The notes: generated by a model not told the origin, from the letters alone. Shown: positions 12,191 to 29,009, counted from the stretch's first letter. The stretch: DNA of 29,028 nucleotides from Rhodospirillales bacterium (GCA_029240475.1 JAREAF010000001.1:1-29028); one strand, 5' to 3'. Numbers and translations: made by a program.

Positions 12191-12225
12191 AGTTATCCGC
12201 TTGCCCCCCTTGGCTGCGCAGGAAG

Positions 12226-12251
12226 AACGCAGGTCGGAGCCCGTCGGTTCC
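12226..12251 (-). promoter_or_regulatory. EcfG (general stress sigma)-type promoter for wzc
   Basis: Perfect GGAAC-N17-CGTT on the minus strand ending 35 nt upstream of the wzc ATG. Confidence 0.75.
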
Positions 12252-12365
12252 TCGCCCGGCGCAGCCGATCGGGTGAATTCAGAGTGAACGGCAGCGCATC
12301 CCAATGGATGCAGACCCGAGGCGGCCCGAGTTACCCCATTCGGGGCCGGGCGGGAGGGGACGCGC

Positions 12366-12396
12366 AAATAGAAAGGCCGGCCCGAAGGCCGGCCCC
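12366..12396 (-). terminator. Rho-independent terminator after the beta-barrel gene
   Basis: Minus strand GGCCGGCC-TTCG-GGCCGGCC followed by TTTCTATTT; cUUCGg tetraloop. Confidence 0.8.
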
Positions 12397-12419
12397 TCCG
12401 CCCCCAACAGACCTGCCGA

Positions 12420-13679
12420 TTAAAGCTGTGCGCCCACCCGGAACAGGATGACGTTCTGCGAGAACTCGTCGGCGGTATCCGAGTTCCGGGTCCGGTGCGT
12501 GAACTCGGCCCCCGCATAGAAGTTTCGGTTGATCAGATAGCGCGCCGAGAGCAAGCCGGTGAAGATGTCGTCCTCGCGGTCGATGCCCTCGTAATCGTCG
12601 CGGCCAACGGTCAACCCGGCGCCCAGCAGCACATTGCGCAGAAGCTCGTGCTCGACCGAGGCTCCGAGGCGCGTCGCCAGATAGCCCGAGGCATTGGCCT
12701 GCGTCGTCTCCTCGGTGCTGACCTCGAGGAACCCGCGCAGGGAGGTGAGGCCCGTGATGTTCCAGAGCAGGCTGCCGCCGGCCGCCAGCCCGTCGATGTC
12801 GTTCAGCTCCTCGTTGTCATAGGTGGTGTGCTGGTAGCCGACGAAGACCTCGCCGGAGACCTTTCCGGTGAAGTCGAGGTCGGTGCCGATGACCGCGGCG
12901 TAACCGACCGAATCGCGATCGAGACCGTTCTCGTCCACCTCTTCATAGTTCCGCATCCGACCGCTCACGCGCACGAAGGCCTCGGTGTCGGGCAGATACT
13001 CATATCCGACCCGGCCGGTCAGGAGGTACTGGACGCGGTCGCGGTCGTCCTGGTCGATCTCCCCGCCGCCAGCGGCGTCGACATCGTGGAAGTCGAAATG
13101 GTCGACATTGCCGTCCAGCCGCGCCGAGATCCGGCCGCGGCCGCGGAAGGCGCCGAGATTGGCGGAGTACATGTCGTACTCGGTGGGCTCTTCGCCGGCG
13201 ACGTCGTCGGGCGAGCCGCGGTCCTCGTGGCGGTGACGCCAGCCGAGACCGCCGAAGATGAAGGTCTCGCGCACCACGTCCAGGCGGCCGTCCAGCAGGG
13301 CGAAGCCATCGAGGAAGTTCTCGTCCTCATTGTCGAGATAGAAGCCCGCCTCGGCGCCGGTGCGCAGATTGAGCGCGTGGCGCCCCCAGTTTGACTCCAC
13401 ATCGACCTCGGGCCGGACCACGGTGATGAAGTCGTCTTCCTCATCGTCGTCATCGGCGAAGATGTTGTCGTTGTAGGCCTCGCCCAGTTCGATGCGGGGG
13501 AAGACCAAGAACCCGCCGGCGCGCACGCCCAACGGGTCGTAATCGGGGCGCGGCCGCTCGAACACGCTCTCACCGCGCCGAGGCTCCTGAGCCTGCGCCT
13601 CGGCGGCGGTCAGCGTCGCCGCGACCGCCATGGCGCATCCGGACAGCAGCGTCGCTACGCGCCGGTTCCGATCCGTCAT
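12420..13679 (-). CDS. Outer-membrane beta-barrel protein of the polysaccharide-export-associated type (BBP2/DUF2320-like)
   Basis: Sec signal (AVAATLTAAEAQA), N-terminal RPRPDYDPLGVRAGGFLVFP, alternating hydrophobic strand pattern, C-terminal VILFRVGAQL; upstream of wzc. Confidence 0.8.
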   Translation of the reverse strand: MTDRNRRVATLLSGCAMAVAATLTAAEAQAQEPRRGESVFERPRPDYDPLGVRAGGFLVFPRIELGEAYNDNIFADDDDEEDDFITVVRPEVDVESNWGRHALNLRTGAEAGFYLDNEDENFLDGFALLDGRLDVVRETFIFGGLGWRHRHEDRGSPDDVAGEEPTEYDMYSANLGAFRGRGRISARLDGNVDHFDFHDVDAAGGGEIDQDDRDRVQYLLTGRVGYEYLPDTEAFVRVSGRMRNYEEVDENGLDRDSVGYAAVIGTDLDFTGKVSGEVFVGYQHTTYDNEELNDIDGLAAGGSLLWNITGLTSLRGFLEVSTEETTQANASGYLATRLGASVEHELLRNVLLGAGLTVGRDDYEGIDREDDIFTGLLSARYLINRNFYAGAEFTHRTRNSDTADEFSQNVILFRVGAQL

Positions 13680-13925
13680 TCAGTACCCCCTTGATCTCAG
13701 GTTGCCGAGTATTCGCTCAGGTCGAGCCGCCGGCGAGAACGCGGCGAAGCAACTCTCCGCCAAGCGGACCCTGCAATCGAAGTCGAAGTCTGGCTTGTCA
13801 TTGAGCAATAATCGATAGGTCGCGACCTTACTCCGACAGTCTTCAGCGCTCTGTGGCCATTCTGCACCAGTCCGACCATCGCGTTTGCTGGGATGGAAGC
13901 GAACTCGTTGGAACGCGCGGACGCC

Positions 13926-14096
13926 TCAGTCCTGGAACGCGCGCCAGACCAGCAGGCCCGCCCCGCCCCACAGCATCCATGCGAGAATGGACGCAAGCAG
14001 GATGACCAGCAGCTTGCGGCGCGGGGACCAAAGCCGATCGGGCTCGGCAGACGCCGTCGGAATCGAATCGGCGGGTGGTCGATGTTCCTGGAGCAT
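13926..14096 (-). CDS. Small single-pass membrane protein, hypothetical (56 aa)
   Basis: MLQEH...WSPRRKLLVILLASILAWMLWGGAGLLVWRAFQD: basic patch then a hydrophobic helix. No clear RBS, so start and coding status are uncertain. Confidence 0.45.
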   Translation of the reverse strand: MLQEHRPPADSIPTASAEPDRLWSPRRKLLVILLASILAWMLWGGAGLLVWRAFQD

Positions 14097-14229
14097 AGGA
14101 TGGAGGAAATGCCGGATCGTGAAGTCGCTGCTCTGCCGCTCGCCAGACACTCTATTCCACCATACTGGACTGATTTGTGCCAGATACACGAAAGATTGAG
14201 ATGCTCATTAGATTATTTCATTTTACCGC

Positions 14230-14255
14230 GGAACATGGACGGATCAGCAAACGTT
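14230..14255 (+). promoter_or_regulatory. EcfG-type promoter upstream of a small ORF and manC
   Basis: Perfect GGAAC-N17-CGTT ending 20 nt before ATG 14276. Confidence 0.72.
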
Positions 14256-14275
14256 GCAGGGTGCAGGGGACAAGG

Positions 14276-14431
14276 ATGCCAAGCCGTCGGGACTGCCTGC
14301 TTCAGCTGCTATGCTTGCCGCTCGCGCCGCTGTCTCTCGCGGCGGCGCCGGCAGAAGAGCGTCAGGCCTGTCTTTGCGACGAGACGGGAGCGCCCCTGAC
14401 CGCCGAGACGGGCGAGCCGCTCGGCTACTGA
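14276..14431 (+). CDS. Small putative exported peptide (51 aa) with twin-arginine-like signal
   Basis: MPSRRDCLLQLLCLPLAPLSLAAA-PAEERQACLCDETGAPLTAETGEPLGY; AGGGG/AAGG purine run before the ATG; lies between an EcfG motif and manC. Confidence 0.5.
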   Translation: MPSRRDCLLQLLCLPLAPLSLAAAPAEERQACLCDETGAPLTAETGEPLGY

Positions 14432-14453
14432 CGTTTGGGGGAATGCTTCGGCG

Positions 14454-15872
14454 ATGATCGTTCCAGTGATCCTGTCGGGAGGGTCCGGGACAAGGCTTTG
14501 GCCGCTGTCCCGTTCCAGCTATCCCAAGCAGTTCCTCAAGGTGGGCTCGGGAGAGTCTCTCCTGCAGCAGACCGCCCGCCGGGTGGCCGGCCACGGCTTT
14601 GCGGCGCCCGTCGCGGTCTCGAACGAGGAGCAGCGATTCCTCATCGCCCATCATCTGCTCGAGGCCGGCGCAGCGCCCCAGAAGATTCTCCTTGAGCCGG
14701 CGGCGCGCAACACGGCGCCCGCCGCCGCCGCGGCCTGCGTCTATCTCTCCCAAGGTCAGGATCCGCTGCTTCTGCTCCTGCCGGCCGACCATGTGATCGG
14801 CGACGCCGAGGCTTTCCGAGCCGCGATCACCACGGGTGCAGGCTATGCGCGCGACGGCTATCTGGTGACCTTCGGGATCCGGCCGGACCGGCCGCACACC
14901 GGCTTTGGCTATATCGAGGCGGGCCGCAGCCTGTCCGCGGACAGCTCGGCCGCCGCGCATGCGGTTGCGCGCTTCGTCGAGAAGCCGGACGCCGCCACCG
15001 CCAGGAGCTACGTGGAGAGCGGGTCGCATTACTGGAACGGCGGCATATTCCTCTTTCGCGCTTCGACCTTCATCCGCGAACTCGAATCCTTCGCGCCGGA
15101 GGTTCTCGCCGCGTGCCGGGAAGCAGTGGAGCGCGGCAGCCACGACGGGGATTTCTTCCGACTGGAGGGCGCCGCGTTCCGGCGCGCTCCGGACCGGTCG
15201 ATCGACTACGCGGTCATGGAGAAGACCGCCGCGGCGGTGGTCGTGCCGGTGGAGATGGGCTGGTCGGATGTCGGCTCCTGGTCCGCTCTTTGGGAGGTGG
15301 GCGAGAAGGACGCGTCCGGCAATGTGGTGGAAGGGGACGCGGTGCTGCATGAGGTGAGCGGCACCTACATCCGCACCGACGGTCCGCTGGTCGCCGGGAT
15401 CGGCGTCTCCGACATGGTCGTTGTGGCGACCGAAGACGCCGTGCTGGTGGCCCCCAAGGACCGCGCCCAGGAGGTCCGCGCCATCGTCGAGCGGCTAAAA
15501 TCCTCGGGGCGGACGGAGCACGAGGCGCACCGGCTGGTCCACCGCCCGTGGGGCAGCTATCGGACCATCTCGCTAGGCGACCGTTTCCAGGTGAAGGAGA
15601 TCATCGTCAAGCCGGGAGCGTCCCTCAGCCTGCAGAAGCACCATCATCGTGCCGAGCACTGGGTCGTCGTGGAAGGCACCGCATCGGTGGTCCGCGGGGA
15701 GGAAACGCTGCTCCTGCACGAGAACCAGTCGATCTTCATCCCGCTCGGCACCAAGCACCGGCTCTCCAATCCGGGCAAGCTGCAGCTGCGGCTGATCGAA
15801 GTACAGTCGGGCTCCTATCTGGGCGAGGACGACATCGTGCGCTTCGAGGACAATTACGGCCGCGCGCGCTGA
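14454..15872 (+). CDS. manC: Mannose-1-phosphate guanylyltransferase / mannose-6-phosphate isomerase
   Basis: VILSGGSGTRLWPLSR..YPKQFL, EPAARNTAPA, WNGGIFLF, SIDYAVMEK, WSDVGSW, and cupin domain HRPWGSY...SLQKHHHRAEHWVVV. Confidence 0.96.
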   Translation: MIVPVILSGGSGTRLWPLSRSSYPKQFLKVGSGESLLQQTARRVAGHGFAAPVAVSNEEQRFLIAHHLLEAGAAPQKILLEPAARNTAPAAAAACVYLSQGQDPLLLLLPADHVIGDAEAFRAAITTGAGYARDGYLVTFGIRPDRPHTGFGYIEAGRSLSADSSAAAHAVARFVEKPDAATARSYVESGSHYWNGGIFLFRASTFIRELESFAPEVLAACREAVERGSHDGDFFRLEGAAFRRAPDRSIDYAVMEKTAAAVVVPVEMGWSDVGSWSALWEVGEKDASGNVVEGDAVLHEVSGTYIRTDGPLVAGIGVSDMVVVATEDAVLVAPKDRAQEVRAIVERLKSSGRTEHEAHRLVHRPWGSYRTISLGDRFQVKEIIVKPGASLSLQKHHHRAEHWVVVEGTASVVRGEETLLLHENQSIFIPLGTKHRLSNPGKLQLRLIEVQSGSYLGEDDIVRFEDNYGRAR

Positions 15873-15890
15873 GCGCCCGCGAGGCGCGCC

Positions 15891-16298
15891 TTAAAGGCGG
15901 CCCACCTCGAATTCCGCGCAGCTATGCCCGTGCTGGCCGAGGCCGTCCTCGATGTGGTCGGCGGCGAGCGGAGTTCCCATCAGATACTGCGCGGCGGGAG
16001 TGTCGCGCGCCTCGGCCGCCTCCTGCACCAGGCGGTCCCAATCCTCCATGTCGCCATCGCCGCGGCCGAGCCACATCAGCGCGACGAGGTTGGACGTCTC
16101 CTCCTCGTTGAGACCGGCGATGAAATCGCCGAGCTCGGTGCGCGTCACATCGTCTGCGTCATCCTCGAGCACTTCGACGAAGTGGTCGTCGGACGGATTG
16201 GAGCCGGAATCAGGATCGTCGTCGCCGGCCACCTGCGCCTGAAGCTGGCGCAGCTTGACGATCACGAAGCAGACCTTCTCGGCGCTGATGGCGATCAT
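15891..16298 (-). CDS. DUF3775-like protein (135 aa)
   Basis: MIAISAEKVCFVIVK...GSNPSDD...LVALMWLGRGD...YLMGTPLAADHIEDGL; this is the C-terminal part of track ORF 15891..17144. Confidence 0.8.
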   Translation of the reverse strand: MIAISAEKVCFVIVKLRQLQAQVAGDDDPDSGSNPSDDHFVEVLEDDADDVTRTELGDFIAGLNEEETSNLVALMWLGRGDGDMEDWDRLVQEAAEARDTPAAQYLMGTPLAADHIEDGLGQHGHSCAEFEVGRL

Positions 16299-16332
16299 GA
16301 ACCTACCCGTCCTTCGCCCGGATCGGCATGAA

Positions 16333-16357
16333 AACCCGGGAGGGCTGCGGCCGTTCC
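16333..16357 (-). promoter_or_regulatory. EcfG-like promoter for the DUF3775-like gene
   Basis: GGAAC-N16-GGTT ending 34 nt upstream of ATG 16298; one mismatch to consensus. Confidence 0.6.
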
Positions 16358-17101
16358 CTAGCCCGCGGACGCCGGACAGATCGCGCGCTCGGTGACCGGC
16401 GCGTCGGGCATGCGCGCGCGAATGATGCGGGCGCGCTCGCGGACATAGGCCGAGGGCTTGGCGGGCGACCATTCGCGCGGATTGGGCAGAACCGCCGCCA
16501 GCAGCGCGGCTTCGTTCGGCTTGAGCGCGCGCGCGGGCTTGCCGAAATAGGTCTGCGAGGCCGCTTCCGCCCCGTAGATGCCGGGCCCCCATTCGGCGAT
16601 GTTCAAGTAGAGCTCCAGGATGCGCTCCTTGCTCAAGCCGATCTCCAGCCAGGGCGTCAGATAGGCCTCGGCGGCCTTGCGCACGAAATTCCGCCCGGGC
16701 CAGAGGAACAGGTTCTTGGCCGTCTGCATGGTGATGGTGCTGGCGCCGCGCACCCGGCGGCCGCGCCGCCAGTCGCGAACGGCTTTTTCCAGCTCCACCG
16801 GGTCGAAGCCGTAATGCTCGCAGAAGCGGGCGTCCTCGGCGGCGATGACCGCGCGGAACAGCTCGGCGGAGATGGCCTGGCGCGGCACCCAGTCGCGATG
16901 GAGCCCCTCGCCCTCGAACAGGCGCAGGATCATCAGCGGCGTGACCGGCGGCGGCACCACGCCATAGAGGAGGATCCCCGCGCCGGGCACGCCGACCGCC
17001 ACCGCCAGCAGGCCCCCGATCAGGCGTGACGCCCAGCGCGAGCGCCAACCCCGGCCGAGCGCGCCGGCGCGCCTGCGCGAAGGTGATGAGGTCGCGACCA
17101 T
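16358..17101 (-). CDS. mtgA: Monofunctional biosynthetic peptidoglycan transglycosylase
   Basis: GT51 motifs [51 protein letters not shown] and N-terminal TM. Confidence 0.93.
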
Positions 17102-17162
17102 CGGCCCTGTTTTGCCAGAGCCGGGCCGCGGAATCGAGCGGCAACTGCCAAGATCGCGGGGG

Positions 17163-17375
17163 TCAGCCCTCGTTCAAGGTGAAGCCGATCCGCAGCACCA
17201 CCTGGAAGTGAGCGACCTCGCCGCCTTCGATGTGGCCGCGCATCTCCTTGACCTCGAACCAGCGCAGATTCTCAAGAGTCTCCGAGGCGCGCCCGACACC
17301 CTTGCGGATGGCGTCCTCGACGCTCTCGGACGAGGATGAGGCAAGCTCAATGATCTTGTAGACGTGGTCGTCCAT
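17163..17375 (-). CDS. Dodecin (flavin-binding dodecamer), 70 aa
   Basis: [19 protein letters not shown]...[29 protein letters not shown]; GAAGGGGA RBS upstream. Confidence 0.92.
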
Positions 17376-17423
17376 CGGCTGTTCCCCTTCGGCGGACCGA
17401 CGGGAGCGTCGGCCCTCCGGCAG

Positions 17424-17448
17424 AACGGGCGCGGCGCGCGCGGGTTGC
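17424..17448 (-). promoter_or_regulatory. EcfG-like promoter for dodecin (possibly bidirectional)
   Basis: Minus strand GCAAC-N16-CGTT; the same bases read AGAAC-N16-GGTT on the plus strand toward the epimerase gene. Confidence 0.5.
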
Positions 17449-17476
17449 CCTGCTCGAGGCTCGCCGCGCGCGATGG

Positions 17477-17493
17477 CGCAACTTTTTCGCCAA
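17477..17493 (-). promoter_or_regulatory. Candidate sigma-54 -24/-12 promoter facing dodecin
   Basis: TTGGCGAAAAAGTTGCG: GG and GC separated by exactly 10 nt with TT before GC; deviates from TGGCAC at two positions. Confidence 0.4.
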
Positions 17494-17535
17494 TTCAGCT
17501 GTTTTCCGACACTCCGATCTCTGGGGGCGGTGCGA

Positions 17536-18651
17536 ATGGGCGAACGTGTGTTGATCACGGGTGGAGCCGGCTTCATCGGGTCCCACCTGGCGGACGAGCT
17601 GCTGGCCGCCGGTCGCGAGGTCCGCGTGCTGGACAACTTGACCGAGCAGGTTCACGGCGGCGCAGACAGGGCGCCGGATTACCTCTCGCCCGAAGTCGAG
17701 TTCGTTTCAGGGGATGTGCGCGATGCCGAGGCGGTGGCGCGCAGCCTCGCCGGCGTGGACGCGGTGGTCCATCTCGCGGCGCGCGTCGGCGTCGGCCAGA
17801 GCATGTACGAAATCGACGAGTATGTGGACACCAACGAGCGCGGCACCGCCGTGCTCCTCCAGGCGCTGATCGCGCGCCCGGTGCGCAAGCTGGTCGTGGC
17901 CTCCTCGATGAGCATCTATGGCGAGGGGCTCTATGCGAACGGCGGCGGCGCCCCTCGCGAGGACGTCGAGCGCACCCATGCCCAGCTGCAGGAGCATCGC
18001 TGGGATCCCGTCGACGAGCAGGGCCGGGCCCTGGCGCCGCTGCCGACGCCCGAGAGCAAGCGCCCGCAGCTGGCTTCGGTCTATGCCCTTTCCAAATTCG
18101 TGCAGGAGCGGATGTGCCTGGTGACCGGGCGCGCCTATGGGATCCCGACCATGGCGCTGCGGTTCTTCAACGTCTATGGCCCGCGGCAGGCGCTCTCCAA
18201 CCCCTATACGGGCGTGCTCGCCATTTTCGCCGCGCGGCTGCTGAACCAGAAGCGCCCGGTGATCTTCGAGGATGGGCTGCAGCAGCGCGACTTCGTGCAT
18301 GTGCAGGACATCGCCCGCGCCTGCCGGCTGGCGCTGGAGCGCGACTGCGCCGATGCGGTGGTCAACATCGGCAGCGGCGAGGCCTCGACCATTCTCCAGA
18401 TCGCCGAGCGGCTGGCGCTCGCATTGGGGCGCAACGACGTCGAGCCGGAGATCACGGGACAGTTTCGCGCCGGCGACATCCGGCACTGCTTCGCCGATAT
18501 CGGCCAAGCGCGCCGGCTGCTCGGTTACGAGCCGTCGGTGAAGCTCGATGACGGGTTGAAAGAGCTGACGGAATGGCTGGCCGGCCAGGCCGCCGAGGAC
18601 CGCTTCGATCAGGCCCGAAGCGAGCTGATGCAGCGCGGCCTATCCGCGTGA
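17536..18651 (+). CDS. NAD-dependent epimerase/dehydratase (extended SDR)
   Basis: MGERVLITGGAGFIGSHL, HLAARVGVGQS, ASSMSIYGEG, YALSK catalytic YxxxK, LRFFNVYGPRQ; start at ATG 17536. Confidence 0.93.
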   Translation: MGERVLITGGAGFIGSHLADELLAAGREVRVLDNLTEQVHGGADRAPDYLSPEVEFVSGDVRDAEAVARSLAGVDAVVHLAARVGVGQSMYEIDEYVDTNERGTAVLLQALIARPVRKLVVASSMSIYGEGLYANGGGAPREDVERTHAQLQEHRWDPVDEQGRALAPLPTPESKRPQLASVYALSKFVQERMCLVTGRAYGIPTMALRFFNVYGPRQALSNPYTGVLAIFAARLLNQKRPVIFEDGLQQRDFVHVQDIARACRLALERDCADAVVNIGSGEASTILQIAERLALALGRNDVEPEITGQFRAGDIRHCFADIGQARRLLGYEPSVKLDDGLKELTEWLAGQAAEDRFDQARSELMQRGLSA

Positions 18652-18674
18652 CTCCCCACGAAGGTGCCCCAGAG

Positions 18675-19781
18675 ATGATCTTCGCCTATTTCGCCCATTC
18701 GATCTCGTCGGACTGGAACAACGGGAACGCGCATTTCCAGCGCGGCGTCTTGCGCGAGCTGGTCCGCGCCGGTCATGCGGTGCGCGCCTTCGAGCCGGCC
18801 GACGGCTGGAGCAGGTCGAATCTCATCGCCGAGCAGGGCGAGGCGGCGCTGGAGCGCTTCGCCGCCAGCTTCCCCGAGCTATCGCCGATCGCATACGAGC
18901 CGGCGGCGCTGGATCTCGATCGCGCCCTCGACGGCGTCGATGTCGTCGTCGTGCATGAATGGAACCCGCCCGAGCTGGTCGCAGCCCTGGGGCAGAAGCG
19001 CCTGCGGGGCGGCCGCTTCAAGCTGCTCTTCCACGACACCCATCACCGGTCCGTCAGCGATCCGAAGGCGATCTCGGGCTACGACCTCGAAGGCTATGAC
19101 GGCGTGCTCGCCTTCGGGGAAGCCATTCGCGAGCGCTATCTCGCGCGCGGTTGGGCGCGCCGGGTATGGACCTGGCACGAGGCGGCCGACACGCGCCTGT
19201 TCCGGCCGATCGTCTCCCAGGAGCGATGGGGCGATGTCGTATGGATCGGCAACTGGGGCGATGACGAGCGCACGCGCGAGCTGCAGGAATTCTTCCTCGA
19301 GCCGGTCAAGGCGCTGCGGCTGCGGGCCCAGGTCCGCGGCGTGCGCTTCCCGCCCGAGGCGCTGGCCTCGCTCTCTCATGCCGGCGCGCGCTATGGCGGA
19401 TGGGTGGCCAATGCCGCGGTGCCCGATCTCTTCGCCCGCTTTCCGCTAACGGTGCACATCCCGCGGCGGCCCTACCGCGAAGCCCTTCCGGGCATTCCCA
19501 CGATCCGCGTCTTCGAGGCGCTGGCCTGCGGCATCCCGCTCATCTCGGCGCCCTGGGACGATGTGGAGCGCCTGTTCCGAGCCGAGGATTATCTCCTGGC
19601 CGCCGATGGGCTGGCGATGCAGCGGATGATGCGCGACCTGCTCTGCGACCGCCATCTGGCCGCCAGGTTCGCCAAGAACGGGCTGGAAACGATCCGCACC
19701 CGGCATACCTGCCGCCACCGGGCCGAGCAACTCTTGGCGATCTGCGCCGAACTGGACCTGCCGGAACGTTCAGCCGCCTGA
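18675..19781 (+). CDS. CgeB-family glycosyltransferase
   Basis: MIFAYFAHSISSDWNNGNAHFQRG, FHDTHHR, WIGNWGDDER, IRVFEALACGIPLISAPW; start at ATG 18675, 23 nt after the epimerase stop. Confidence 0.85.
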   Translation: MIFAYFAHSISSDWNNGNAHFQRGVLRELVRAGHAVRAFEPADGWSRSNLIAEQGEAALERFAASFPELSPIAYEPAALDLDRALDGVDVVVVHEWNPPELVAALGQKRLRGGRFKLLFHDTHHRSVSDPKAISGYDLEGYDGVLAFGEAIRERYLARGWARRVWTWHEAADTRLFRPIVSQERWGDVVWIGNWGDDERTRELQEFFLEPVKALRLRAQVRGVRFPPEALASLSHAGARYGGWVANAAVPDLFARFPLTVHIPRRPYREALPGIPTIRVFEALACGIPLISAPWDDVERLFRAEDYLLAADGLAMQRMMRDLLCDRHLAARFAKNGLETIRTRHTCRHRAEQLLAICAELDLPERSAA

Positions 19782-19819
19782 CTGGACCGCCTGACCGGAT
19801 TGAAGGCGCAAAATGCCGA

Positions 19820-19854
19820 GGGGGCGGAGCGATCCGAAGGATCGTCCGCCTCCC
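19820..19854. terminator. GC-rich hairpin between convergent genes, probable terminator
   Basis: GGGGGCGGA-G-CGATCC-GAA-GGATCG-TCCGCCTCCC; long stem with one bulge and only a weak U-tract. Confidence 0.5.
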
Positions 19855-19874
19855 GACATTCTGATCGGCCGACC

Positions 19875-20210
19875 TTACTGAGTCGTGGTGGTGGTCGTGC
19901 CGGTGGTCCCGGTGGTCCCAGTAGTCCCGGTGGTGCCGGTCGTCCCGGTGTCGCCGCCGGTCGTGCCGGTCGTGCCGGTGCCGGTGTCCGTCGTCGTGGT
20001 CGTCGTTCCGGTCGCACCGGTGGTCGTGTCGGTGGTCGTGCCAGTGGTGCCGGTGGTGGTGTTGGTGGTCGTGCCGGTCGTGCCTGTGTCGGTTGCACCG
20101 GTATTCTCGGCCGTGGTGTCGTTGTCGCCACAGGCCGCGAGCGGTCCCGCGACCGCCACGATCACGGCGGTGAGCAGCGACAACCGGCGCAGCGTTTCGA
20201 ATTTGGCCAA
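19875..20210 (-). CDS. Thr/Gly-rich low-complexity lipoprotein (111 aa)
   Basis: TTG start at 20210 with GGAGG RBS; signal MAKFETLRRLSLLTAVIVAVAGPLAA-C (lipobox LAAC); mature 85 aa almost entirely T/G/D. Confidence 0.8.
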   Translation of the reverse strand: MAKFETLRRLSLLTAVIVAVAGPLAACGDNDTTAENTGATDTGTTGTTTNTTTGTTGTTTDTTTGATGTTTTTTDTGTGTTGTTGGDTGTTGTTGTTGTTGTTGTTTTTTQ

Positions 20211-20258
20211 ACTACCCTCCTTGGGTCTGTTGGGTCGTCTATTGGCCCCCCGCGCGTG

Positions 20259-20283
20259 AACACGGGGCAACATTCGCAGTTGC
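20259..20283 (-). promoter_or_regulatory. EcfG-like promoter for the Thr-rich lipoprotein
   Basis: GCAAC-N16-TGTT ending 48 nt upstream of the TTG; core AAC/GTT and spacing kept, two mismatches. Confidence 0.45.
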
Positions 20284-20500
20284 GCGTGGGCAGGTGCCTT
20301 AATGCCGTCACAGTCGGCTTGCGCCGAGATGGTCTTGGTGAACGGGCGGCGGCTTAGATCAGGAGGGGCGGCTTATATACCCTTGGGTCTGTGACCGGGC
20401 GCGCCGGCTGCGATATGATTAGCGGCAAATCATCACATCCGGGCGGCTGCGGTTTCAGGTCCAGGCTGCGGCGCCTGAGACTCAAGGATCCAGCCCTGTC

Positions 20501-21304
20501 ATGAACGATCTCTCTCACGAAATCGCCCGACACCTGCCGTTCCTGCGCCGCTACGCGCGCGCCCTGACCGGGTCTCAGGAGCGGGGCGACCGTTACGTGC
20601 GGGTCTGCCTTGAGACCATCCTGGAGGAACCGGGGCGGATCGCGCCGGAAGAAGACCCCCGGCTCCAGCTGTACAGCGTTTTCCATGACGTATGGGCCGT
20701 GGTGCAATCGGTCGCTCCGGAGGATGAGGGCGAGGCCGGCGGTTCGGGCGGCGACAGTCTGCAGCAAGGCTTGGCGGCGTTGCCCGCCATCGAGCGGCAG
20801 GTGCTCCTGCTGATCTCGCTCGAGGGCTTCTCCTACGAGGAGACGGCGCAGATCCTGGGGCTCGAGCGCGACGAGGTGCGGCTGCTGCTGCACGCCGCGC
20901 AGGAGGAGATGCAGCGCCAGACGGCCGCTTCGGTGCTGATCATCGAAGACGAGCAGCTGATCGCCATGGACCTGGCGCGCATCGTCGAGGAGATGGGCCA
21001 CCGCTTGTGCGGCACCGCCGCGCGCCAGCAGGAGGCGATCGAGCTCGCCGAGCGGACCCGGCCCGGCCTGGTGCTGGCCGACATACAGCTGCAGAACGGC
21101 GACAACGGCATCCAGACCGTCCGCGAGATCCTGCGGCGGATCGACGCGCCCGTGATCTTCGTCACCGGCTTTCCCGAACGGCTCCTCACCGGCGAAGCGC
21201 TCGAGCCGGCCTTCGTCATCACCAAGCCATTCAACCCGCAGACCCTGAAGACGGCGATCGCGCAGGCGCTCTCGCTCTCGCGCGATCCGGCCCGACAGAG
21301 GTAG
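20501..21304 (+). CDS. phyR: PhyR anti-anti-sigma response regulator of the general stress response
   Basis: N-terminal sigma-like domain HLPFLRRYARALTGSQERGD...RQVLLLISLEGFS, C-terminal REC VLIIEDE...LVLADIQL...VIFVTGFPERLLTG...ITKPF. Confidence 0.95.
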   Translation: MNDLSHEIARHLPFLRRYARALTGSQERGDRYVRVCLETILEEPGRIAPEEDPRLQLYSVFHDVWAVVQSVAPEDEGEAGGSGGDSLQQGLAALPAIERQVLLLISLEGFSYEETAQILGLERDEVRLLLHAAQEEMQRQTAASVLIIEDEQLIAMDLARIVEEMGHRLCGTAARQQEAIELAERTRPGLVLADIQLQNGDNGIQTVREILRRIDAPVIFVTGFPERLLTGEALEPAFVITKPFNPQTLKTAIAQALSLSRDPARQR

Positions 21305-21340
21305 CCTCGCGGAGCTCTTCGCTTCCGAGGGTCCCGCCTG

Positions 21341-21682
21341 GTGTCGACCGACGATCGGCTGCCCACCGAGATCTGGGTCAAGGCGCATCTGCGGCGCTGC
21401 TACGCGGAGGGCCTGCCCGCGACCATCCTGCGCCGCGGCGATGCGACCGGCGGAATGGTGCTGCTCAAGATCAACCGCCTGGAGCTGGGCTGCGCGGTGC
21501 TGACCCAGACGCGCGACCTGGCGGGCCGGCCCGCCTGGCTCGCCGCGCAGGGCGGCGCCCTCCTGCCCGAAGCGGATGCGGACGCCTACATAGAACGGGC
21601 GGTCAAGCGCGATCCGGACCTGTGGGTGGTCGAGGTCGAGAGTCGCAGCGGCGAGCACCCGTTCGAGGGGCGCGTTCTCTGA
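21341..21682 (+). CDS. DUF1491-family protein
   Basis: RLPTEIWVKAHLRR...ILRRGDATGG...YIERAVKRDPDLWVVEVES. Confidence 0.85.
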   Translation: MSTDDRLPTEIWVKAHLRRCYAEGLPATILRRGDATGGMVLLKINRLELGCAVLTQTRDLAGRPAWLAAQGGALLPEADADAYIERAVKRDPDLWVVEVESRSGEHPFEGRVL

Positions 21683-21683
21683 G

Positions 21684-22466
21684 CTATTCCCACGGCGATC
21701 GCCGGTCTCTGGGCCGATAGCGGACCTCGGGGAGGTGGCTGCGCCGGCCGGGCGGGCGCACTTCCCACGGCGTGGAATGCGACGGCTCCAGCAGATGCAC
21801 CTCCCGCCGCTTGAAGAACGGGGTCAGCGCCATGCCGGCCACGAAGCCACCGATATGCGCCCAGAAGGCGACGCCGCCACCCTCTTCGCTCATCGGCATG
21901 GCGGCCCCGCTCACGATCTGCAAAACGAACCAGAGACCGAGCACCAGCGCCGCAGGTAGGTTTATGATCCGCACGAAGAAGAAGATGATCACCACGCGCA
22001 CATTGGCGCGCGGATGCATGATGAGGTAGGAGCCGAGCACGCCGGCGATGGCGCCGCTGGCGCCGACCATGGGCACCTGCGACTGCGGCGCATAGATGCT
22101 CTGAGCCAGCGCCGCCCCGATCCCGCACAGCAAGTAGAAGATCAGGTAGCGCGGGCGCGTCATGGAGTCTTCGACGTTATTCCCGAAGATCCAGAGATAG
22201 AGCATGTTGCCGCCGAGATGCAGCCAGCCTCCATGCAGGAACATGGAGGTGAAGACCGTCGCCCAGGGCGGCACCAGCGCGATCTCGGGCGCAAGCTCGG
22301 CATAGCCGAAGAGCGAGGCGGGAATGACGCCGAGCGCGAAGATGATCTGGTCGCCGAGCGGGCCCAGCGACAGCTGCCAGAGAAATGCGAGCACGCAGGC
22401 GGCGATCAGCGCCCAGGTCACGATCGGCGGGCGCCCTACCGGATTGTCGTCGGAAATCGGAAACAT
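21684..22466 (-). CDS. Rhomboid-family intramembrane serine protease
   Basis: MFPISDDNP, SMFLHGGWLHLGGNMLYLWIFGNNVED, catalytic GASGAI and VAFWAHIGGF. Confidence 0.93.
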   Translation of the reverse strand: MFPISDDNPVGRPPIVTWALIAACVLAFLWQLSLGPLGDQIIFALGVIPASLFGYAELAPEIALVPPWATVFTSMFLHGGWLHLGGNMLYLWIFGNNVEDSMTRPRYLIFYLLCGIGAALAQSIYAPQSQVPMVGASGAIAGVLGSYLIMHPRANVRVVIIFFFVRIINLPAALVLGLWFVLQIVSGAAMPMSEEGGGVAFWAHIGGFVAGMALTPFFKRREVHLLEPSHSTPWEVRPPGRRSHLPEVRYRPRDRRSPWE

Positions 22467-22472
22467 GCTCGG

Positions 22473-23228
22473 CTAGTCGCGGTAGCCGGGGTCAGTGCGG
22501 TCGAGCTGGCGCAGGAGCGCGCGCCACTCGCGCGTCCCGGCGGGCTCGTCGTCCTGTTCATACTGCCGCGCCGTCTTTTCGCAGACCTCGGGAGCGGGAA
22601 TAACCAGCTCGCGTCCGGTGGAGAGCGCCGCGATCTGGATCTCGCAGGCGCGCTCCAGGTAGAACATGAGGCTGAAGGCTTCCGGCACGCTCTCGCCCGC
22701 GGTGAGCAAGCCGTGATTGCGCAGGATCATCGCCTTGCGCATTCCCAGATCGCTGGCGAGCCGGTCGCGCTCGTCCAGGTCGAGCGCGATGCCTTCGTAA
22801 TCGTGATAGGCCACGCGATCGTAGAACTGCAGCGCGATCTGCGAGATCGGCAGCAGTCCCTCGCGCATCGAAGCGACGGCGATCCCGGCCCGGGTATGGG
22901 TGTGCAGAACGCAGTGGACGTCCGGCCGCGCGCGGTGGATCGCGCTGTGGATGGTGAAGCCGGCCGGGTTCACCTGATGAGGCGTGTCCTCGACGACCCG
23001 GCCGTCGATGTCGACGCGCACCAGGTTGGAGGCGCTCACCTCCTCGAACAACAAGCCGTACGGGTTCAGCAGGAAGTGCTCGGTTCCAGGAATGCGCGCG
23101 GAGATATGCGTATAGACCAGGTCGGTCATCCGCATTTGCGCGATCAGCCGATAGCAGGCGGCGAGCTCGATGCGCGCTGCGCGCTCCTCGACGGTCCAGC
23201 GGCGGGCGGCTGCGGTCAGGGCGGCCAT
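22473..23228 (-). CDS. Class II aldolase/adducin-family protein
   Basis: YTHISARIPG, NPYGLLFEEV.ASNL, GFTIHSAIH, VLHTHT, LRNHGLLTAG; start ATG 23228 with AGGAG RBS. Confidence 0.92.
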   Translation of the reverse strand: MAALTAAARRWTVEERAARIELAACYRLIAQMRMTDLVYTHISARIPGTEHFLLNPYGLLFEEVSASNLVRVDIDGRVVEDTPHQVNPAGFTIHSAIHRARPDVHCVLHTHTRAGIAVASMREGLLPISQIALQFYDRVAYHDYEGIALDLDERDRLASDLGMRKAMILRNHGLLTAGESVPEAFSLMFYLERACEIQIAALSTGRELVIPAPEVCEKTARQYEQDDEPAGTREWRALLRQLDRTDPGYRD

Positions 23229-23293
23229 GTCGATGCTCCTTCCGAACGGTTCCCGCGACCCTAGCCGATCGGCCGCGCTCCCGCGAGCCGGCG

Positions 23294-23470
23294 CTATACG
23301 CCCGGCCAGGCGATTACGATCCAGCCGAACCAGATAAGCCCGATCCAGACCGCCAGCACCACAATGAGGCCGGTCAGCGGCCAATAGCCCCAGGCGCGCG
23401 CGAACGGGAACCAGGGCCCGGAGAGGACGAGCGCAACGACGAGAGCGACAAGGACGGCGGTGCCGAGCAT
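23294..23470 (-). CDS. Small two-TM membrane protein, DUF3309-like (58 aa)
   Basis: MLGTAVLVALVVALVLSGPWFPFARAWGYWPLTGLIVVLAVWIGLIWFG; the P-x-x-P-x-x-R-x-WGY-x-P linker resembles DUF3309. Alternative start at 23512. Confidence 0.55.
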   Translation of the reverse strand: MLGTAVLVALVVALVLSGPWFPFARAWGYWPLTGLIVVLAVWIGLIWFGWIVIAWPGV

Positions 23471-23501
23471 GGACGGATCCGTTGCGGCGATCACCGCCAG
23501 C

Positions 23502-23527
23502 AACGGCGGCATTGAGGCGGACGTTCG
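23502..23527 (-). promoter_or_regulatory. EcfG-like promoter for the DUF3309-like gene
   Basis: CGAAC-N17-CGTT ending 31 nt upstream of ATG 23470; one mismatch. Confidence 0.5.
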
Positions 23528-23538
23528 CGCGCCGCCCT

Positions 23539-24306
23539 TTAGCGCTCCGCCGCGCGCCTGCGGGCCGCCTCGCCCAAGGCGCGGTAGAGCTTCATCGAGA
23601 AGGGGTTGGCGGCGGCCTTGTATTCGGGGTGCCATTGCACGCCAAGCGCCAAGCTGGGCGCTTGGGCGACCCGCACCGCCTCGATTGTGCCGTCCGGAGC
23701 ATGGCCCTCCGCCACCAGCCCGGGCGCCAGCCGGTCGATGCCCTGGCGGTGCAGCGAATTGACCCAGACCTCGCCCGCTCCGGCGATCCGCTCGAAAGCT
23801 CCGCCCGGAATGAAGCGCACCGGATGGCGCGGCCCGTAGCGCAAATCGAGGTCCTCCTCCTGCGGAGCGCGGTGATCGTGACGCCCCTCCAGCGCATGGA
23901 CTTCGGCATGCAGGGTGCCGCCGAGCGCCACGTTCAGCTCCTGAAAGCCGCGGCAGATCGCCAGCAGCGGAATCCCTCGCTCGAGCGCCGCGTGGATGAG
24001 CGGGAAGGTGGTGGCGTCCCGCGCCTCGTCGTAAGGCTCGGCGGCCGCATGCGGCTCCACGCCGTACCGGCTTGGATGGACGTTGGAGAGGCTGCCGGTC
24101 AGCACGACGCCATCAACGCGCTCCAGCAAGGAACGAAGGTCGAGCGCTTCGCCGAGCGCGGGCACGATCACCGGGGTGGCCGCCGCGCCCACGGCGATCG
24201 CCGTCAGATATTTCTCGCCGACGGCATGGGTGGGATGGCCACCCGCGGCTTTCAGGCAGGCCGAGACGGCGATCAGCGGGGCGGCGTCGCTCATGCGGGC
24301 CATCAT
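23539..24306 (-). CDS. Gamma-glutamyl-gamma-aminobutyrate hydrolase-like (PuuD / peptidase C26) amidohydrolase
   Basis: DGVVLTGSLSNVHP, nucleophile LAICRGFQELNV, NSLHRQGI, VQWHPE; start at 24306, 24303 or 24294. Confidence 0.9.
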   Translation of the reverse strand: MMARMSDAAPLIAVSACLKAAGGHPTHAVGEKYLTAIAVGAAATPVIVPALGEALDLRSLLERVDGVVLTGSLSNVHPSRYGVEPHAAAEPYDEARDATTFPLIHAALERGIPLLAICRGFQELNVALGGTLHAEVHALEGRHDHRAPQEEDLDLRYGPRHPVRFIPGGAFERIAGAGEVWVNSLHRQGIDRLAPGLVAEGHAPDGTIEAVRVAQAPSLALGVQWHPEYKAAANPFSMKLYRALGEAARRRAAER

Positions 24307-24337
24307 AGGAGATGCCGCCGGTTGCGCGCCATCCAGG

Positions 24338-25237
24338 TCATCCTTCCCGGCCTTGTTGCGCCCGGATCAGCTCGGCAAAGCCGAACAGCAGCAGCAGGAT
24401 GCCGGCGATCACCTCGATCGCGGCCACCATGCGCACCGAGTTGTCGATGGGCAGGATGTCGCCATAGCCGACGGTCGCCATGGTGGAGACGGAGAAATAG
24501 AGGCTCTCGGCAAAGCCCATCGGGCGCGCCTGGCCGGAGACGGAGAACTGCGCCCCCGGCTGAATCCGGTCGATCAGGATGTACAGAGCCGCGAAGACGA
24601 TGATCACGAGCGAGTAGACGCTGAAGAACGCGAACACCGGCACGGCCATCCGCGCGAGGTTGCGAAAGAAGATCTCAAACAGGGAGCCGGTCTCGAGGAG
24701 GAAGAGCGCGATCTGCTCCACGTTCCAGATGACCGCCACGGAGATCGCCGCCATCGACAGCAGCAGCGCCAGCCCGAGCCAGCCGGGGGCGATCAGGTCG
24801 GGCAGCGCGAAGGTGAAGGCGCCGATCGCCACGATCGGCACGAGCCAGGCGATGCCGATCGCTTCCTGGCGTTCCGGACGCCGGCGCTGCTCGGCCAGAT
24901 GCCGGATGCTCTGCCGCTGGACGGCGCAGCCGGCGGCGAAGGCCAGGATGGGCAGCACGAATGCGACCGCCTCCACGGCGGGGTCGACCGGCGCGAAGTT
25001 GGCCTCCACGAAAAAGACGAAGAGACAGGCATAGACCGTCAGGAGATTGGCCAAGGCGAGCGCGAACAGGCCGGCGCCCGGAAACAGTCTGCGGAAGAGC
25101 GCGACCGGCAGCAGGATCCCCCCGAGCAGCACGGCCGCGAACCAGCGCGAGAACCCGGTCAGGGCGGCGGCGATCAGCAGCACGAAGCTCGCGGTGGCGA
25201 CGATCTCGCGCAGCTGGATGCGCCGTGGGGACCTCAT
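24338..25237 (-). CDS. Potassium channel family protein (pore domain at C-terminus)
   Basis: Several N-terminal TMs followed by [19 protein letters not shown] (TVGYG filter) and a final TM; ATG overlaps the upstream stop (ATGA). Confidence 0.85.
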
Positions 25238-25605
25238 CGCCGCCGCCAGGCGGCCGAGGCCGTCAGGGCCAACCAGCCGGCAATGAGAGCCATTCCGCCG
25301 AACGGCGCTATTCCTGCCGGCATGCCGAGCCCAAGGCCCCGCATGCCCAAGGTACCGCTGAACAGAATGAGTCCCGCCAGGAACGCGATACCGGCAAGCT
25401 GCGGCAAGGCTCCGCCCCTGCGGTCGGCGAGCCAGGCGGTCGCCGCCAGGGCCGGCGCGTGAAGCAGCAGAAACTCGGCCGCACGTCCGGCCAGGTCGGG
25501 AGCGGGGAGCCCCTGATGGGCGGCCGCCGCGGCCATCGCCACTCCTGCAGCGCCGGCCAGGCCGGCCGCCGCAAGCCAGATCCGCGCGGCGGCAGCCATC
25601 GGCAT
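25234..25605 (-). CDS. DUF423-family small membrane protein
   Basis: [44 protein letters not shown]; start at 25605 or 25599. Confidence 0.8.
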
Positions 25606-25609
25606 CGCC

Positions 25610-26791
25610 TCAGCCGCGATGGTCCTGGCTGGCGACCAGCCGCTCGGCCACCTCGGCCATCTTCTCGGCCGGCAGATTGGCGAAGGCGAGCCGCAGGGCG
25701 CCCTCCTGGCCCGGCCCGAAGATCGTGCCCGGCAGGCAGAGCAGGTTGTGGCGGTCGGCCAGACGCCGCGCGACGGCGGAAGCGACCTCGCCCGCGAAGG
25801 GATGGCGCACCCAGGCGAAGAAGGCGCCCGCGCTGATGAGCTGGTATTCGAGCGCATTCGCCCGGAACGCGGCGCGCAGCGCCTCCAGGCGCTCGAGCAT
25901 CATGCGCCGTTTCTCCTCGCGCCAGGGCGCAAGCCGCTCGATGCCGAACAGCGCCGCCTCCTGGCCGATATGGGGCGCGCAGATCGCCACGCAGTCCATC
26001 GCCTTGGCCACCGCATCGAGCAGCGGCCGGCCCGCCGCGATCGAGCCGACGCGATAGCCGGTCAGGCTGTAGGCCTTCGAGAAGCTGTAGAGCTGGACCA
26101 GCGTTTGCGGCCAGTCCCGATCCTGGAACAGGGCGTGCGCGGGCGCGCCGCTCGCGCGGAAATCCTTGTAGGTCTCGTCCAGCACGAGCGCGATCCCGCG
26201 CCGCTGCGCGAGGCGGTAGAAGGCTTGGATCAACTCGGCCGGATAGGTCGCTCCGGTCGGGTTGTTGGGGCTGATCAGCACGATGGCGCGCGTGCGCGGG
26301 GTGATCCGGCGCGCGGCCTCGTCCGGATTGGGCAGCGCGTCGCCCGCGCCCACCGGCAGCGGCACGAGCGAGACGCCGAGCATCTCCAGCCACATCTGAT
26401 AGTTGAAGTAGAAGGGCAGTGGCAGGATCACCTCGTCGCCTGCGCGTGCGAGCGCCTGCGCGACGAGGCAGAAGGCCTGATTGCACCCCGCAGTGACGCC
26501 GATCTGCTCGGCGGCGATGTTGCCTCGATAATCCTGGCCGAGATGCGCGGCGAGCGCGGCGCGCAAATCCGCGCGCCCGAGGATGTCGGTATAGAAGGCG
26601 GTCTCGGGGCGCTGCACCGCCGCGGCCAAGTGGCGCGTCAGCGCCTCGGCCGGTGGATAGCTCGGCACCGCCTGCGCGCAATCGAGCAGCGGACGGTCGG
26701 CCGGGAACACCCGCCCGCGAATCCAGGACTGCGCCTCGGCGATCGGCGCCGCGGCGACGCTTTCGACCAGGGGGTTGAGGCGGTAAGCCAT
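25610..26791 (-). CDS. PLP-dependent class I/II aminotransferase
   Basis: [24 protein letters not shown]-lysine motif [15 protein letters not shown]; start ATG 26791 (MAYRLNP). Confidence 0.93.
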
Positions 26792-26874
26792 GACGGGGCG
26801 AGCCTTCGACAAGGGCCGTGATCGGCCGCGGCGAGGCTTGCACCCTCGTTCCGCGCCTGTCAACGCGCCAGGGG

Positions 26875-27447
26875 TCAGCCGGGGGCGCCCTTCAGCAGGA
26901 GCGTCCAGTCGCGCAGCTTCTCGAGAAGGTTGCGGATGTGCTTGCGTGTGTTCTCGTCGGTGAGACGGCCGTCGGCATCGAACTTCGCCGCAGCCTCGCG
27001 GATCAGCACCTCCGGGCGGCTCAAGACCGGCATGTTGAGCCCGCTCAGGATCTGCCTGAGATGCAGCTGCGCGCGCACGGTGCCCATGAGTCCCGGCGCG
27101 GCGCCCATCATCGCCACGGGTTTGCCGATGAACGGCATGTCGGGCGGACGCGAGGCCCAGTCGATCGCGTTCTTCAGCACGCCGGGTACCGAGTAGTTGT
27201 ATTCGGGGGTGACGAAGAGCAGGGCGTCCGCCTCGGCGATGGCTTGCCGGAATTCCGCGACCGGCGGCGGGAAGCCCTTCGCCTTCACATCCTCATCATA
27301 GAGCGGGATGTCGCCCAGCCGCTGGAACGGGCGGATCGACACGCCCTCGGGCGCAAGCTCGCACGCGGCTGCCAGCGCCCGCTTGTTGAAGGAGCCCTGC
27401 CGCAAGCTGCCCGCGATGCCAAGAATCGTGATCGCCAACCCGCACAT
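26875..27447 (-). CDS. NADPH-dependent FMN reductase (flavodoxin-like)
   Basis: GIAGSLRQGSFN, LFVTPEYNYSVPGVLKNAIDWASR; TTG at 27438 with AAGGA RBS is an alternative start. Confidence 0.93.
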   Translation of the reverse strand: MCGLAITILGIAGSLRQGSFNKRALAAACELAPEGVSIRPFQRLGDIPLYDEDVKAKGFPPPVAEFRQAIAEADALLFVTPEYNYSVPGVLKNAIDWASRPPDMPFIGKPVAMMGAAPGLMGTVRAQLHLRQILSGLNMPVLSRPEVLIREAAAKFDADGRLTDENTRKHIRNLLEKLRDWTLLLKGAPG

Positions 27448-27603
27448 CCTTCGAGCCGCCGCCAGATCAACGACGATAGCAGTTCAGTTGTCGCGGCGCG
27501 ACGGGATGGCCCTGAAACCAATCTATTCTAGCTGAATATTTGCTGCTGTTTTTGAGTTGTTTGGCCTCTATTGGGGGACGGCAAATCAAGGCCCATGAAG
27601 GAC

Positions 27604-27628
27604 GGAACTCGGGACAGTTCATGGCGTT
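27604..27628 (+). promoter_or_regulatory. EcfG-type promoter for the GYGQ-repeat protein
   Basis: Perfect GGAAC-N16-CGTT ending 49 nt upstream of ATG 27678. Confidence 0.8.
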
Positions 27629-28949: not shown

Positions 28950-28978
28950 CCCCCCAGCTTAGGGAACGCGACTGCGTG

Positions 28979-29009
28979 AAGCCCCGTCCCGGACGGGGCT
29001 TCTCTTTTT
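28979..29009 (+). terminator. Rho-independent terminator after the GYGQ-repeat gene
   Basis: AAGCCCCGTC-CCG-GACGGGGCTT followed by CTCTTTTT. Confidence 0.88.

Follow-up and report, generated by a model that had tools for sequence, protein, structure and literature searches.

Results

General-stress promoter motifs in a polysaccharide locus that carries phyR

The window analysed in this study is a stretch of 29,028 nt from a Rhodospirillales bacterium (GCA_029240475.1, JAREAF010000001.1:1-29028), and it is the largest contig (C120) of a metagenome-assembled genome (MAG, denoted G000) of 659 contigs and 3.77 Mb with 68% GC and 82% completeness. Within a polysaccharide locus the window carries phyR, which encodes the anti-anti-sigma response regulator of the general stress response (GSR), and a preliminary description of the stretch had proposed that seven EcfG-type promoter motifs define a local general-stress regulon around this gene. 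All seven were located: the three perfect motifs lie ahead of wzc, ahead of a small peptide gene that is followed by manC and ahead of a gene for a protein rich in Gly, Tyr and Gln (GYGQ protein), and the four near-matches lie ahead of a DUF3775 gene, a dodecin gene, a gene for a Thr-rich lipoprotein and a DUF3309 gene (Table 1). We also identified an eighth, new candidate ahead of an epimerase-glycosyltransferase pair. All eight sites are intergenic, sense-oriented and located 20-49 nt ahead of start codons, in line with the orientation and the 20-50 nt spacing that had been claimed for the seven. The three exact matches to GGAAC-N16/17-CGTT in the window compare with 0.22 from dinucleotide shuffles of the window, and the DUF3775, lipoprotein, DUF3309 and epimerase sites are each one position off G[GC]AAC...CGTT. 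When up to one mismatch is allowed, the window contains 24 matches in total, 14 in its non-coding 9.7% and 10 in the coding remainder.

Table 1. Position of phyR and of the predicted stress-type promoters in the window.
Feature	Position	Strand	Motif	Placement or basis
Predicted wzc promoter	12226-12251	-	GGAAC-N17-CGTT	exact match, 35 nt before ATG 12190
Predicted peptide/manC promoter	14230-14255	+	GGAAC-N17-CGTT	exact match, 20 nt before ATG 14276
Candidate DUF3775 promoter	16333-16357	-	GGAAC-N16-GGTT	34 nt before ATG
Predicted dodecin promoter	17424-17448	-	GCAAC-N16-CGTT	48 nt before ATG
Candidate epimerase-glycosyltransferase promoter (eighth, new)	17478-17503	+	GCAAC-N17-TGTT	32 nt before ATG 17536
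Predicted Thr-rich lipoprotein promoter	20259-20283	-	GCAAC-N16-TGTT	48 nt before TTG start
phyR	20501-21304	+		Pfam and NCBIfam
Candidate DUF3309 promoter	23502-23527	-	CGAAC-N17-CGTT	31 nt before ATG
Predicted GYGQ protein promoter	27604-27628	+	GGAAC-N16-CGTT	exact match, 49 nt before ATG 27678

The gene identities that had been assigned from the sequence were borne out, by Pfam in the case of wzc, ManC, DUF3775, dodecin, DUF3309 and PhyR, and by reading frames of the kind described in the case of the lipoprotein and the GYGQ protein. The preliminary description had further reported that such motifs are missing ahead of pstS, the kinase and regulator genes, mtgA, the aminotransferase and the FMN reductase. 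Upstream of the first five we found no match within one mismatch; for the FMN reductase it is correct that a good motif is missing, but a GCGAC-N17-CGTT site is present at 27469-27494 on the minus strand, which violates the near-invariant AAC core and which we rate as weak.

The motif behaves as a promoter class genome-wide

The genome-wide statistics are based on gene calls from our own codon-usage caller (3868 genes, 87% of the genome coding), and 2144 upstream regions with a total of 370 kb were scanned, with the chance level taken from dinucleotide shuffles. The exact GGAAC form occurs at 38 sites genome-wide, 25 of which fall in the non-coding 13% of the genome, and 19 sites lie no more than 250 nt upstream of a gene in the same orientation; in the upstream regions, 19 exact sites compare with 2.7 in the shuffled sequences. 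A position weight matrix that included the flanks was abandoned in favour of mismatch classes, because the flanks hold almost no information. One-mismatch matches to the exact GGAAC form number 147 in the upstream regions and 63 in the shuffles, and among the mismatch classes GCAAC-N16/17-CGTT stands out, with 40 upstream sites that are not copies of a repeat against 2.1 expected. The two forms together (G[G/C]AAC-N16/17-CGTT, here called strict) are found in 59 upstream regions against 4.6 expected, a density well above the shuffled background, and in co-directional regions 36 are in sense and 7 in antisense orientation. The median distance from site to start codon is 49 nt genome-wide. Taken together these data show that sites with this motif behave like members of a genuine promoter class.

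GCAAC is the majority -35 box of the genome (40 upstream sites against 19 with GGAAC), and the dodecin site, which had been grouped with degenerate and individually weak sites, is therefore a full match. Two of the other classes are moderately enriched upstream of genes, namely the one with a GGTT -10 box (16 against 4.5 expected) and the one with a -35 box that begins with C (16 against 4.35). The class with a TGTT -10 box is clearly real, with 24 upstream matches against 3.0 expected and, in co-directional regions, 13 in sense and 1 in antisense orientation. The corresponding numbers for GGTT are 5 in sense and 9 in antisense, an excess of antisense to be expected from the partly palindromic nature of real sites (CGTT-GC reads GCAACG on the opposite strand). 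A count of the pattern over the whole of a sister genome, G001, made without gene calls, gave 90 matches against 159 for the reversed pattern and was uninformative, because coding DNA dominates it.

Outside the window, GCAAC sites precede genes for DUF3309, Pmp3, entericidin, OtsA (GT20), Ku, an ATP-dependent ligase and a CBS protein (recognised from their N-termini, with Pfam matches where tested), as well as a GalE-like epimerase and a PGM/PMM enzyme, both with Pfam matches. GGAAC sites precede genes for LigD, a PRC-barrel protein, a Gly-zipper lipoprotein, an FMN reductase, a PQQ dehydrogenase and a phospholipase-D protein, and they are also found ahead of a GalU-like nucleotidyltransferase gene whose downstream neighbour we read as likely ugd, a priming sugar transferase with a glycosyltransferase, a glycosyltransferase with an apparent fragment of UDP-galactopyranose mutase, and a flippase-like protein on contig C411, the last from its N-terminal reading and with no Pfam match. 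By our reading, about 10 of the 59 strict sites lie outside the window and have genes for sugar nucleotides or polysaccharides behind them; 5 of these genes have a Pfam match and the rest were judged from N-terminal sequence. The predicted regulon is thus the hallmark general-stress set together with a polysaccharide programme.

Motif sites are concentrated on the phyR contig

On C120 the strict motif is present in 4 of the 18 upstream regions where 0.5 would be expected, an enrichment of about 8-fold (hypergeometric P = 1.2e-3). Inclusion of the TGTT class raises this to 6 of 18 (P = 3.6e-5), and further inclusion of the GGTT and C-first classes to 7 of 18 against 0.96 expected (P = 2e-5). 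We regard the strict figure as the fair one, because the relaxed classes were picked after the sites of the window had been seen. The phyR contig ranks first of all contigs in site enrichment, and the earlier claim that this neighbourhood is enriched for EcfG-type motifs is upheld on the strict count.

The clustering could nevertheless be unlinked to phyR, if the contig is rich in sites simply because it holds a polysaccharide locus, a gene class that carries the motif genome-wide. The sugar and polysaccharide genes found behind strict sites elsewhere are consistent with this explanation, as is the fact that three or four of the eight sites in the window serve polysaccharide genes. However, four of the sites serve stress genes of another kind (dodecin, DUF3775, DUF3309 and the GYGQ protein) and one serves the lipoprotein gene divergent from phyR, and we consider a mere effect of the gene class rather unlikely.

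Genes behind the sites and their conservation

The sites were compared with the two sister genomes G001 and G002, which are the sole congeners of G000 among the genomes searched, the remaining genomes being related to it at class level only. Aligned DNA of the window is about 75-78% identical to that of the sister genomes. At five of the seven sites first described both boxes are kept in at least one sister genome with diverged spacers; counted by genomes, the wzc site is conserved in three and the peptide/manC, dodecin, DUF3775 and lipoprotein sites in two each.

The wzc gene (9911-12190) encodes Wzz, GNVR and AAA_31 domains and starts at ATG 12190 rather than at the start of the longer open reading frame (ORF); a hypothetical gene downstream of it (9208-9891) was assigned to the same promoter. 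In G001 the site is kept as GGAAC-N17-CGTT, with 10 of 17 spacer bases identical by our count and with a conserved leader. In G002 the genes from wzy to wzc are lost, but the corresponding position behind the porin gene still has a GCAAC-N17-CGTT site, which there precedes a homologue of the gene downstream of wzc. A GC-rich hairpin with a T-run (12366-12396), conserved in G001, follows the porin gene ahead of the wzc site and insulates wzc from the porin transcript.

The peptide site precedes a 51-aa secreted ORF with a signal peptide (14276-14431), which is followed by manC (14454-15872), and transcription from this promoter probably continues into manC. G001 has GCAAC-N17-CGTT at this place and has kept the peptide ORF, and in G002 neither the motif nor a well-conserved peptide was found at the locus. 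The peptide and DUF3309 sites are palindromic, each being readable as a motif on the other strand. On the minus strand the peptide site reads GCAAC-N17-TGTT (14232-14257), and since this form is also kept in G001 (GGAAC-N17-TGTT) the promoter may be bidirectional. The minus-strand reading aims at an ORF 135 nt away in the 786-nt gap between porin and manC (13926-14096, minus strand), which encodes a single-pass membrane protein of about 56 aa and has a 53% identical counterpart at the corresponding position in G001.

The DUF3775 gene occupies 15891-16298 and its site lies directly 3' of the mtgA stop codon; G002 has GCAAC-N16-GGTT with a different spacer, and a DUF3775 paralogue on contig C77 of G001 has no motif at the proper spacing. 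The dodecin gene (17163-17375, Pfam Dodecin match with E = 4e-28) is preceded in G002 by GCAAC-N17-CGTT, again with a different spacer, of 17 nt instead of the 16 nt in the window. Back to back with the dodecin promoter stands the new epimerase site, and its position 32 nt upstream follows from the choice of ATG 17536 as the start of the epimerase gene (17536-18651), which yields a canonical N-terminal GGAGFIG Rossmann motif. The glycosyltransferase gene (starting at 18573 or 18675 and ending at 19781) follows. In G002 the -35 box of the epimerase site is kept and the -10 box is CTTT, with the epimerase mostly deleted and present as a degraded N-terminal remnant.

The lipoprotein gene (19875-20210) is divergent from phyR, and its TTG start is preceded by a strong AAGGAGG ribosome-binding site; the product has a LAAC lipobox and a Thr-rich mature chain and no Pfam match. 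In G001 the GCAAC and TGTT boxes are kept, with a changed spacer sequence that is 17 nt long instead of 16. The DUF3309 gene (23294-23470) scores 24.3 bits against a cut-off of 22.3, and a paralogue on contig C292 has a full GCAAC-N17-CGTT 35 nt upstream. Read on the plus strand, the DUF3309 site is itself a full GCAAC-N17-CGTT (23500-23525), which would transcribe antisense into the 3' end of a peptidase C26 gene (23539-24306, minus strand). The GYGQ protein (27678-28949) has 423 aa and no Pfam match. No counterpart of DUF3309 or of the GYGQ protein was found at the syntenic places or elsewhere in G001 and G002. An inverted repeat right after the GYGQ stop codon (28963-28990) matches the motif with one mismatch on either strand (GGAAC...CGTC and GGGAC...CGTT); a terminator-like palindrome is a likelier explanation for it than a promoter.

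The locus is a patchwork across the three species, which differ by whole genes; the variable stretches, in comparison with L001 and L064, are 15891-16298, 17163-19781, 23294-23470, 24338-25536 and 27678-28949. Absent from G001 are DUF3775, the dodecin-epimerase-glycosyltransferase block, DUF3309, an ion channel and a GYGQ homologue, and G002 is without wzy-wzc and most of the epimerase. The variable small genes of the locus have a stress promoter each.

It is conceivable that only the strict sites (wzc, peptide/manC, GYGQ and dodecin) are functional and that the DUF3775, DUF3309, lipoprotein and epimerase sites are chance look-alikes, in which case the island would be half as large. By the one-mismatch counts given above about four in ten such matches could arise by chance, the GGTT class has no sense excess and the DUF3309 site may mirror the plus-strand site. 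On the other hand, the TGTT class is strongly enriched and strongly biased to the sense strand, the palindromic nature of real sites explains the antisense excess of GGTT, and both boxes of the lipoprotein and DUF3775 sites are kept in one sister genome while the spacers have diverged. GGTT, TGTT, CGAAC and GCAAC variants are also listed before EcfG-dependent genes in Sphingomonas melonis Fr1 (PMC6599016), and a restriction to the strict sites is in our view unlikely.

PhyR and the candidate sigma factors

The phyR product matches Pfam PhyR_sigma2, PhyR_sigma-like and Response_reg as well as NCBIfam NF006623 (332 bits against a cut-off of 240), and from these domains its assignment as a bona fide PhyR is certain. 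The Pfam NepR family (PF18557) gave nothing at E <= 0.001 in G000 and nothing at E <= 0.1 in G001 and G002. A regular-expression search returned a 63-aa NepR-like ORF in two near-identical copies, C90:3076-3264 and C203:1416-1580, both on the minus strand (L085 and L086). These lie on short contigs of lower GC (60-64%) with few other credible genes and no adjoining sigma gene, and the copies may stem from misbinning or belong to a mobile element.

The genome contains at least five sigma genes of the extracytoplasmic function (ECF) type and nine Sigma70_r2 matches, and in the neighbourhoods of all nine no small upstream ORF together with the motif was found. The best matches to the sigma-like domain of PhyR are C432:3532-4071 (L057) and C493:1494-2006, and these two are also the best matches to the NepR-linked EcfG genes of a distant alphaproteobacterium (G018), far above other ECFs. 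Both are without NepR upstream and score below the NCBIfam equivalog cut-offs. The C493 sigma gene has a gene for a zinc-finger-type anti-sigma factor downstream; the C432 sigma gene adjoins kdpDE-like genes, by our N-terminal reading, and no motif was found in the 513-nt gene-free region upstream of it. The C432 sigma protein is 97% identical to its copy in G001 (C13:17331-17861, L087), whereas PhyR is 86% identical between these species, and both copies lie in lower-GC DNA, a pattern that points to a recent transfer or to constraint of unusual strength.

Many ECF sigma factors share an AAC core in the -35 box and a CGT core in the -10 box, and phyR of model species is usually EcfG-dependent itself. 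The boxes might thus be real but used by another AAC/CGT-type ECF sigma factor that is not the PhyR-controlled EcfG, with phyR close by through coincidence, and the number of ECF genes, the failure to find a nepR-ecfG operon in the MAG or its sisters and the phyR gene without a motif would all fit; yet both boxes and their spacing equal the EcfG consensus, the two candidates resemble NepR-linked EcfG far more than the other ECFs do, and the genes behind the motif are a specific general-stress set (Ku, LigD, OtsA, PRC-barrel, Pmp3 and entericidin) that is under EcfG in model species (PMC6599016), so that we regard this as improbable.

Metatranscriptome contigs over the window

Contigs from four soil and rhizosphere metatranscriptomes are 95-99% identical to parts of the window, and the genes are expressed there. 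In all four, RNA-contig depth across the region peaks by a wide margin over the lipoprotein stretch. For one lipoprotein contig (depth 61) the end lies at 20237, which is 22 nt below the -10 box, with Illumina adapter sequence beyond it, and this read-through suggests a common fragment end at this position. The wzc contigs end at 12191-12194 and no piece among those listed bridges to the porin gene. These ends are compatible with separate wzc and lipoprotein transcripts that begin just below the boxes. As the contigs carry no strand direction, have been trimmed and derive from related strains, the ends do not amount to a start mapping. At position 19952, inside the Thr-rich repeat of the lipoprotein gene, contigs in all four metatranscriptomes are 3 nt shorter, which is an in-frame length variant among strains.

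Discussion

The seven boxes of the preliminary description are real, and most of them very probably serve as binding sites of a general-stress sigma factor. Based on motif statistics, conservation and gene content, we consider it highly probable that the sites are promoters of the PhyR/EcfG-type general stress response of alphaproteobacteria. In the proposed mechanism, an EcfG-type (ECF15-like) sigma factor would recognise a G[G/C]AAC -35 box and a [C/T/G]GTT -10 box at a distance of 16-17 nt, and phosphorylation of PhyR, encoded in the middle of the cluster, would release this sigma factor from its anti-sigma factor. The sigma factor would then directly drive the polysaccharide genes, that is, wzc with its downstream gene, the peptide gene with manC and probably the epimerase-glycosyltransferase pair, together with the small stress genes for dodecin, DUF3775 and DUF3309, the surface Thr-rich lipoprotein and the large low-complexity cytoplasmic GYGQ protein.

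Our confidence differs between the individual sites. The wzc site is very probably a stress-sigma promoter and the dodecin site is one with high likelihood, and the same role is likely for the peptide/manC, GYGQ and lipoprotein sites. The DUF3775 site would probably act in this way, the DUF3309 site is more likely than not to do so, and for the epimerase site the chances are slightly better than even.

Several observations weigh against this interpretation. The statistics rest on a crude home-made gene caller, and the relaxed motif classes were not chosen blindly. A motif of this class was not found before phyR in G000 or G001, and a nepR-ecfG operon was not found in the 82% complete MAG or in G001 and G002; the only NepR-like ORF reaches 17.3 bits against a cut-off of 25.7, NepR being its sole Pfam match, and neither of the EcfG-like sigma candidates is in a canonical context. 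The RNA contigs end 14-25 nt inside the expected starts, and the GYGQ and DUF3309 sites are without comparative support. In view of the context of the sigma candidates, we infer the identity of the sigma factor from the motif, from PhyR and from the content of the regulon, and the dependence on PhyR and the exact transcription starts are likewise deduced.

In the canonical GSR core locus of alphaproteobacteria, phyR is divergent from nepR-ecfG and a HWE/HisKA2 kinase gene is nearby. The locus described here resembles it in that a bona fide PhyR is encoded amid genes that carry the stress promoter, but the gene divergent from phyR, also in G001, is that of the Thr-rich lipoprotein, and the only kinase in the window is of the PAS-HisKA type, with no HWE/HisKA2 kinase there. 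In Sphingopyxis granuli TFA the EcfG promoter is GGAAC-N16-CGTT, GGAAC and GCAAC are the two commonest -35 boxes, AAC is near-invariant, the -10 box is flexible and the regulon comprises many small stress and envelope genes (PMC7083833). The present system shares the promoter form, the two -35 boxes and the small stress and envelope genes, but here GCAAC is the majority box, nepR-ecfG was not found, phyR is located in a polysaccharide locus and the starts are predicted.

The likeness to S. melonis Fr1 extends to the regulon, since Ku, a PRC-barrel protein and trehalose genes are EcfG-dependent in that species, and its motifs are mainly located less than 100 bp from the start codon (PMC6599016). 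The motif variants and the link to polysaccharides are also common to both. The glycosyltransferase/exopolysaccharide cluster of S. melonis Fr1 is EcfG-dependent and was classed as probably indirect (PMC6599016), whereas here polysaccharide genes carry full motifs directly upstream; moreover, S. melonis Fr1 has the canonical phyR/nepR-ecfG core locus that was not found here.

The system is an ordinary example of the well-known PhyR/EcfG response, and it adds nothing to the mechanism of the GSR. What is particular is that phyR lies apart from nepR-ecfG inside a polysaccharide locus, that the predicted regulon is rich in polysaccharide genes and that small promoter-bearing genes turn over. We tentatively suggest, at somewhat less than even confidence, that in this uncultured soil genus the GSR has been wired with exopolysaccharide production and export as one of its main direct outputs, that phyR has been relocated from nepR-ecfG to the polysaccharide locus, that the preferred -35 box has shifted to GCAAC and that the genes subject to turnover bring their promoters with them. 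The genes concerned would be wzc, manC and the epimerase-glycosyltransferase pair in the window and, elsewhere in the genome, the GalU-like gene with the likely ugd, the priming transferase, the flippase-like protein, the GalE-like epimerase and the PGM/PMM enzyme, with dodecin, DUF3775, DUF3309 and the GYGQ protein coming and going between species.

The analysis provides a promoter model that can be put to use, G[C/G]AAC-N16/17-[C/T]GTT, and an initial list of regulon members for a soil lineage represented by MAGs alone. The content of the predicted regulon points to joint induction of trehalose synthesis, DNA end-joining and the synthesis of capsule or exopolysaccharide, which, if true, would be a plausible desiccation programme.

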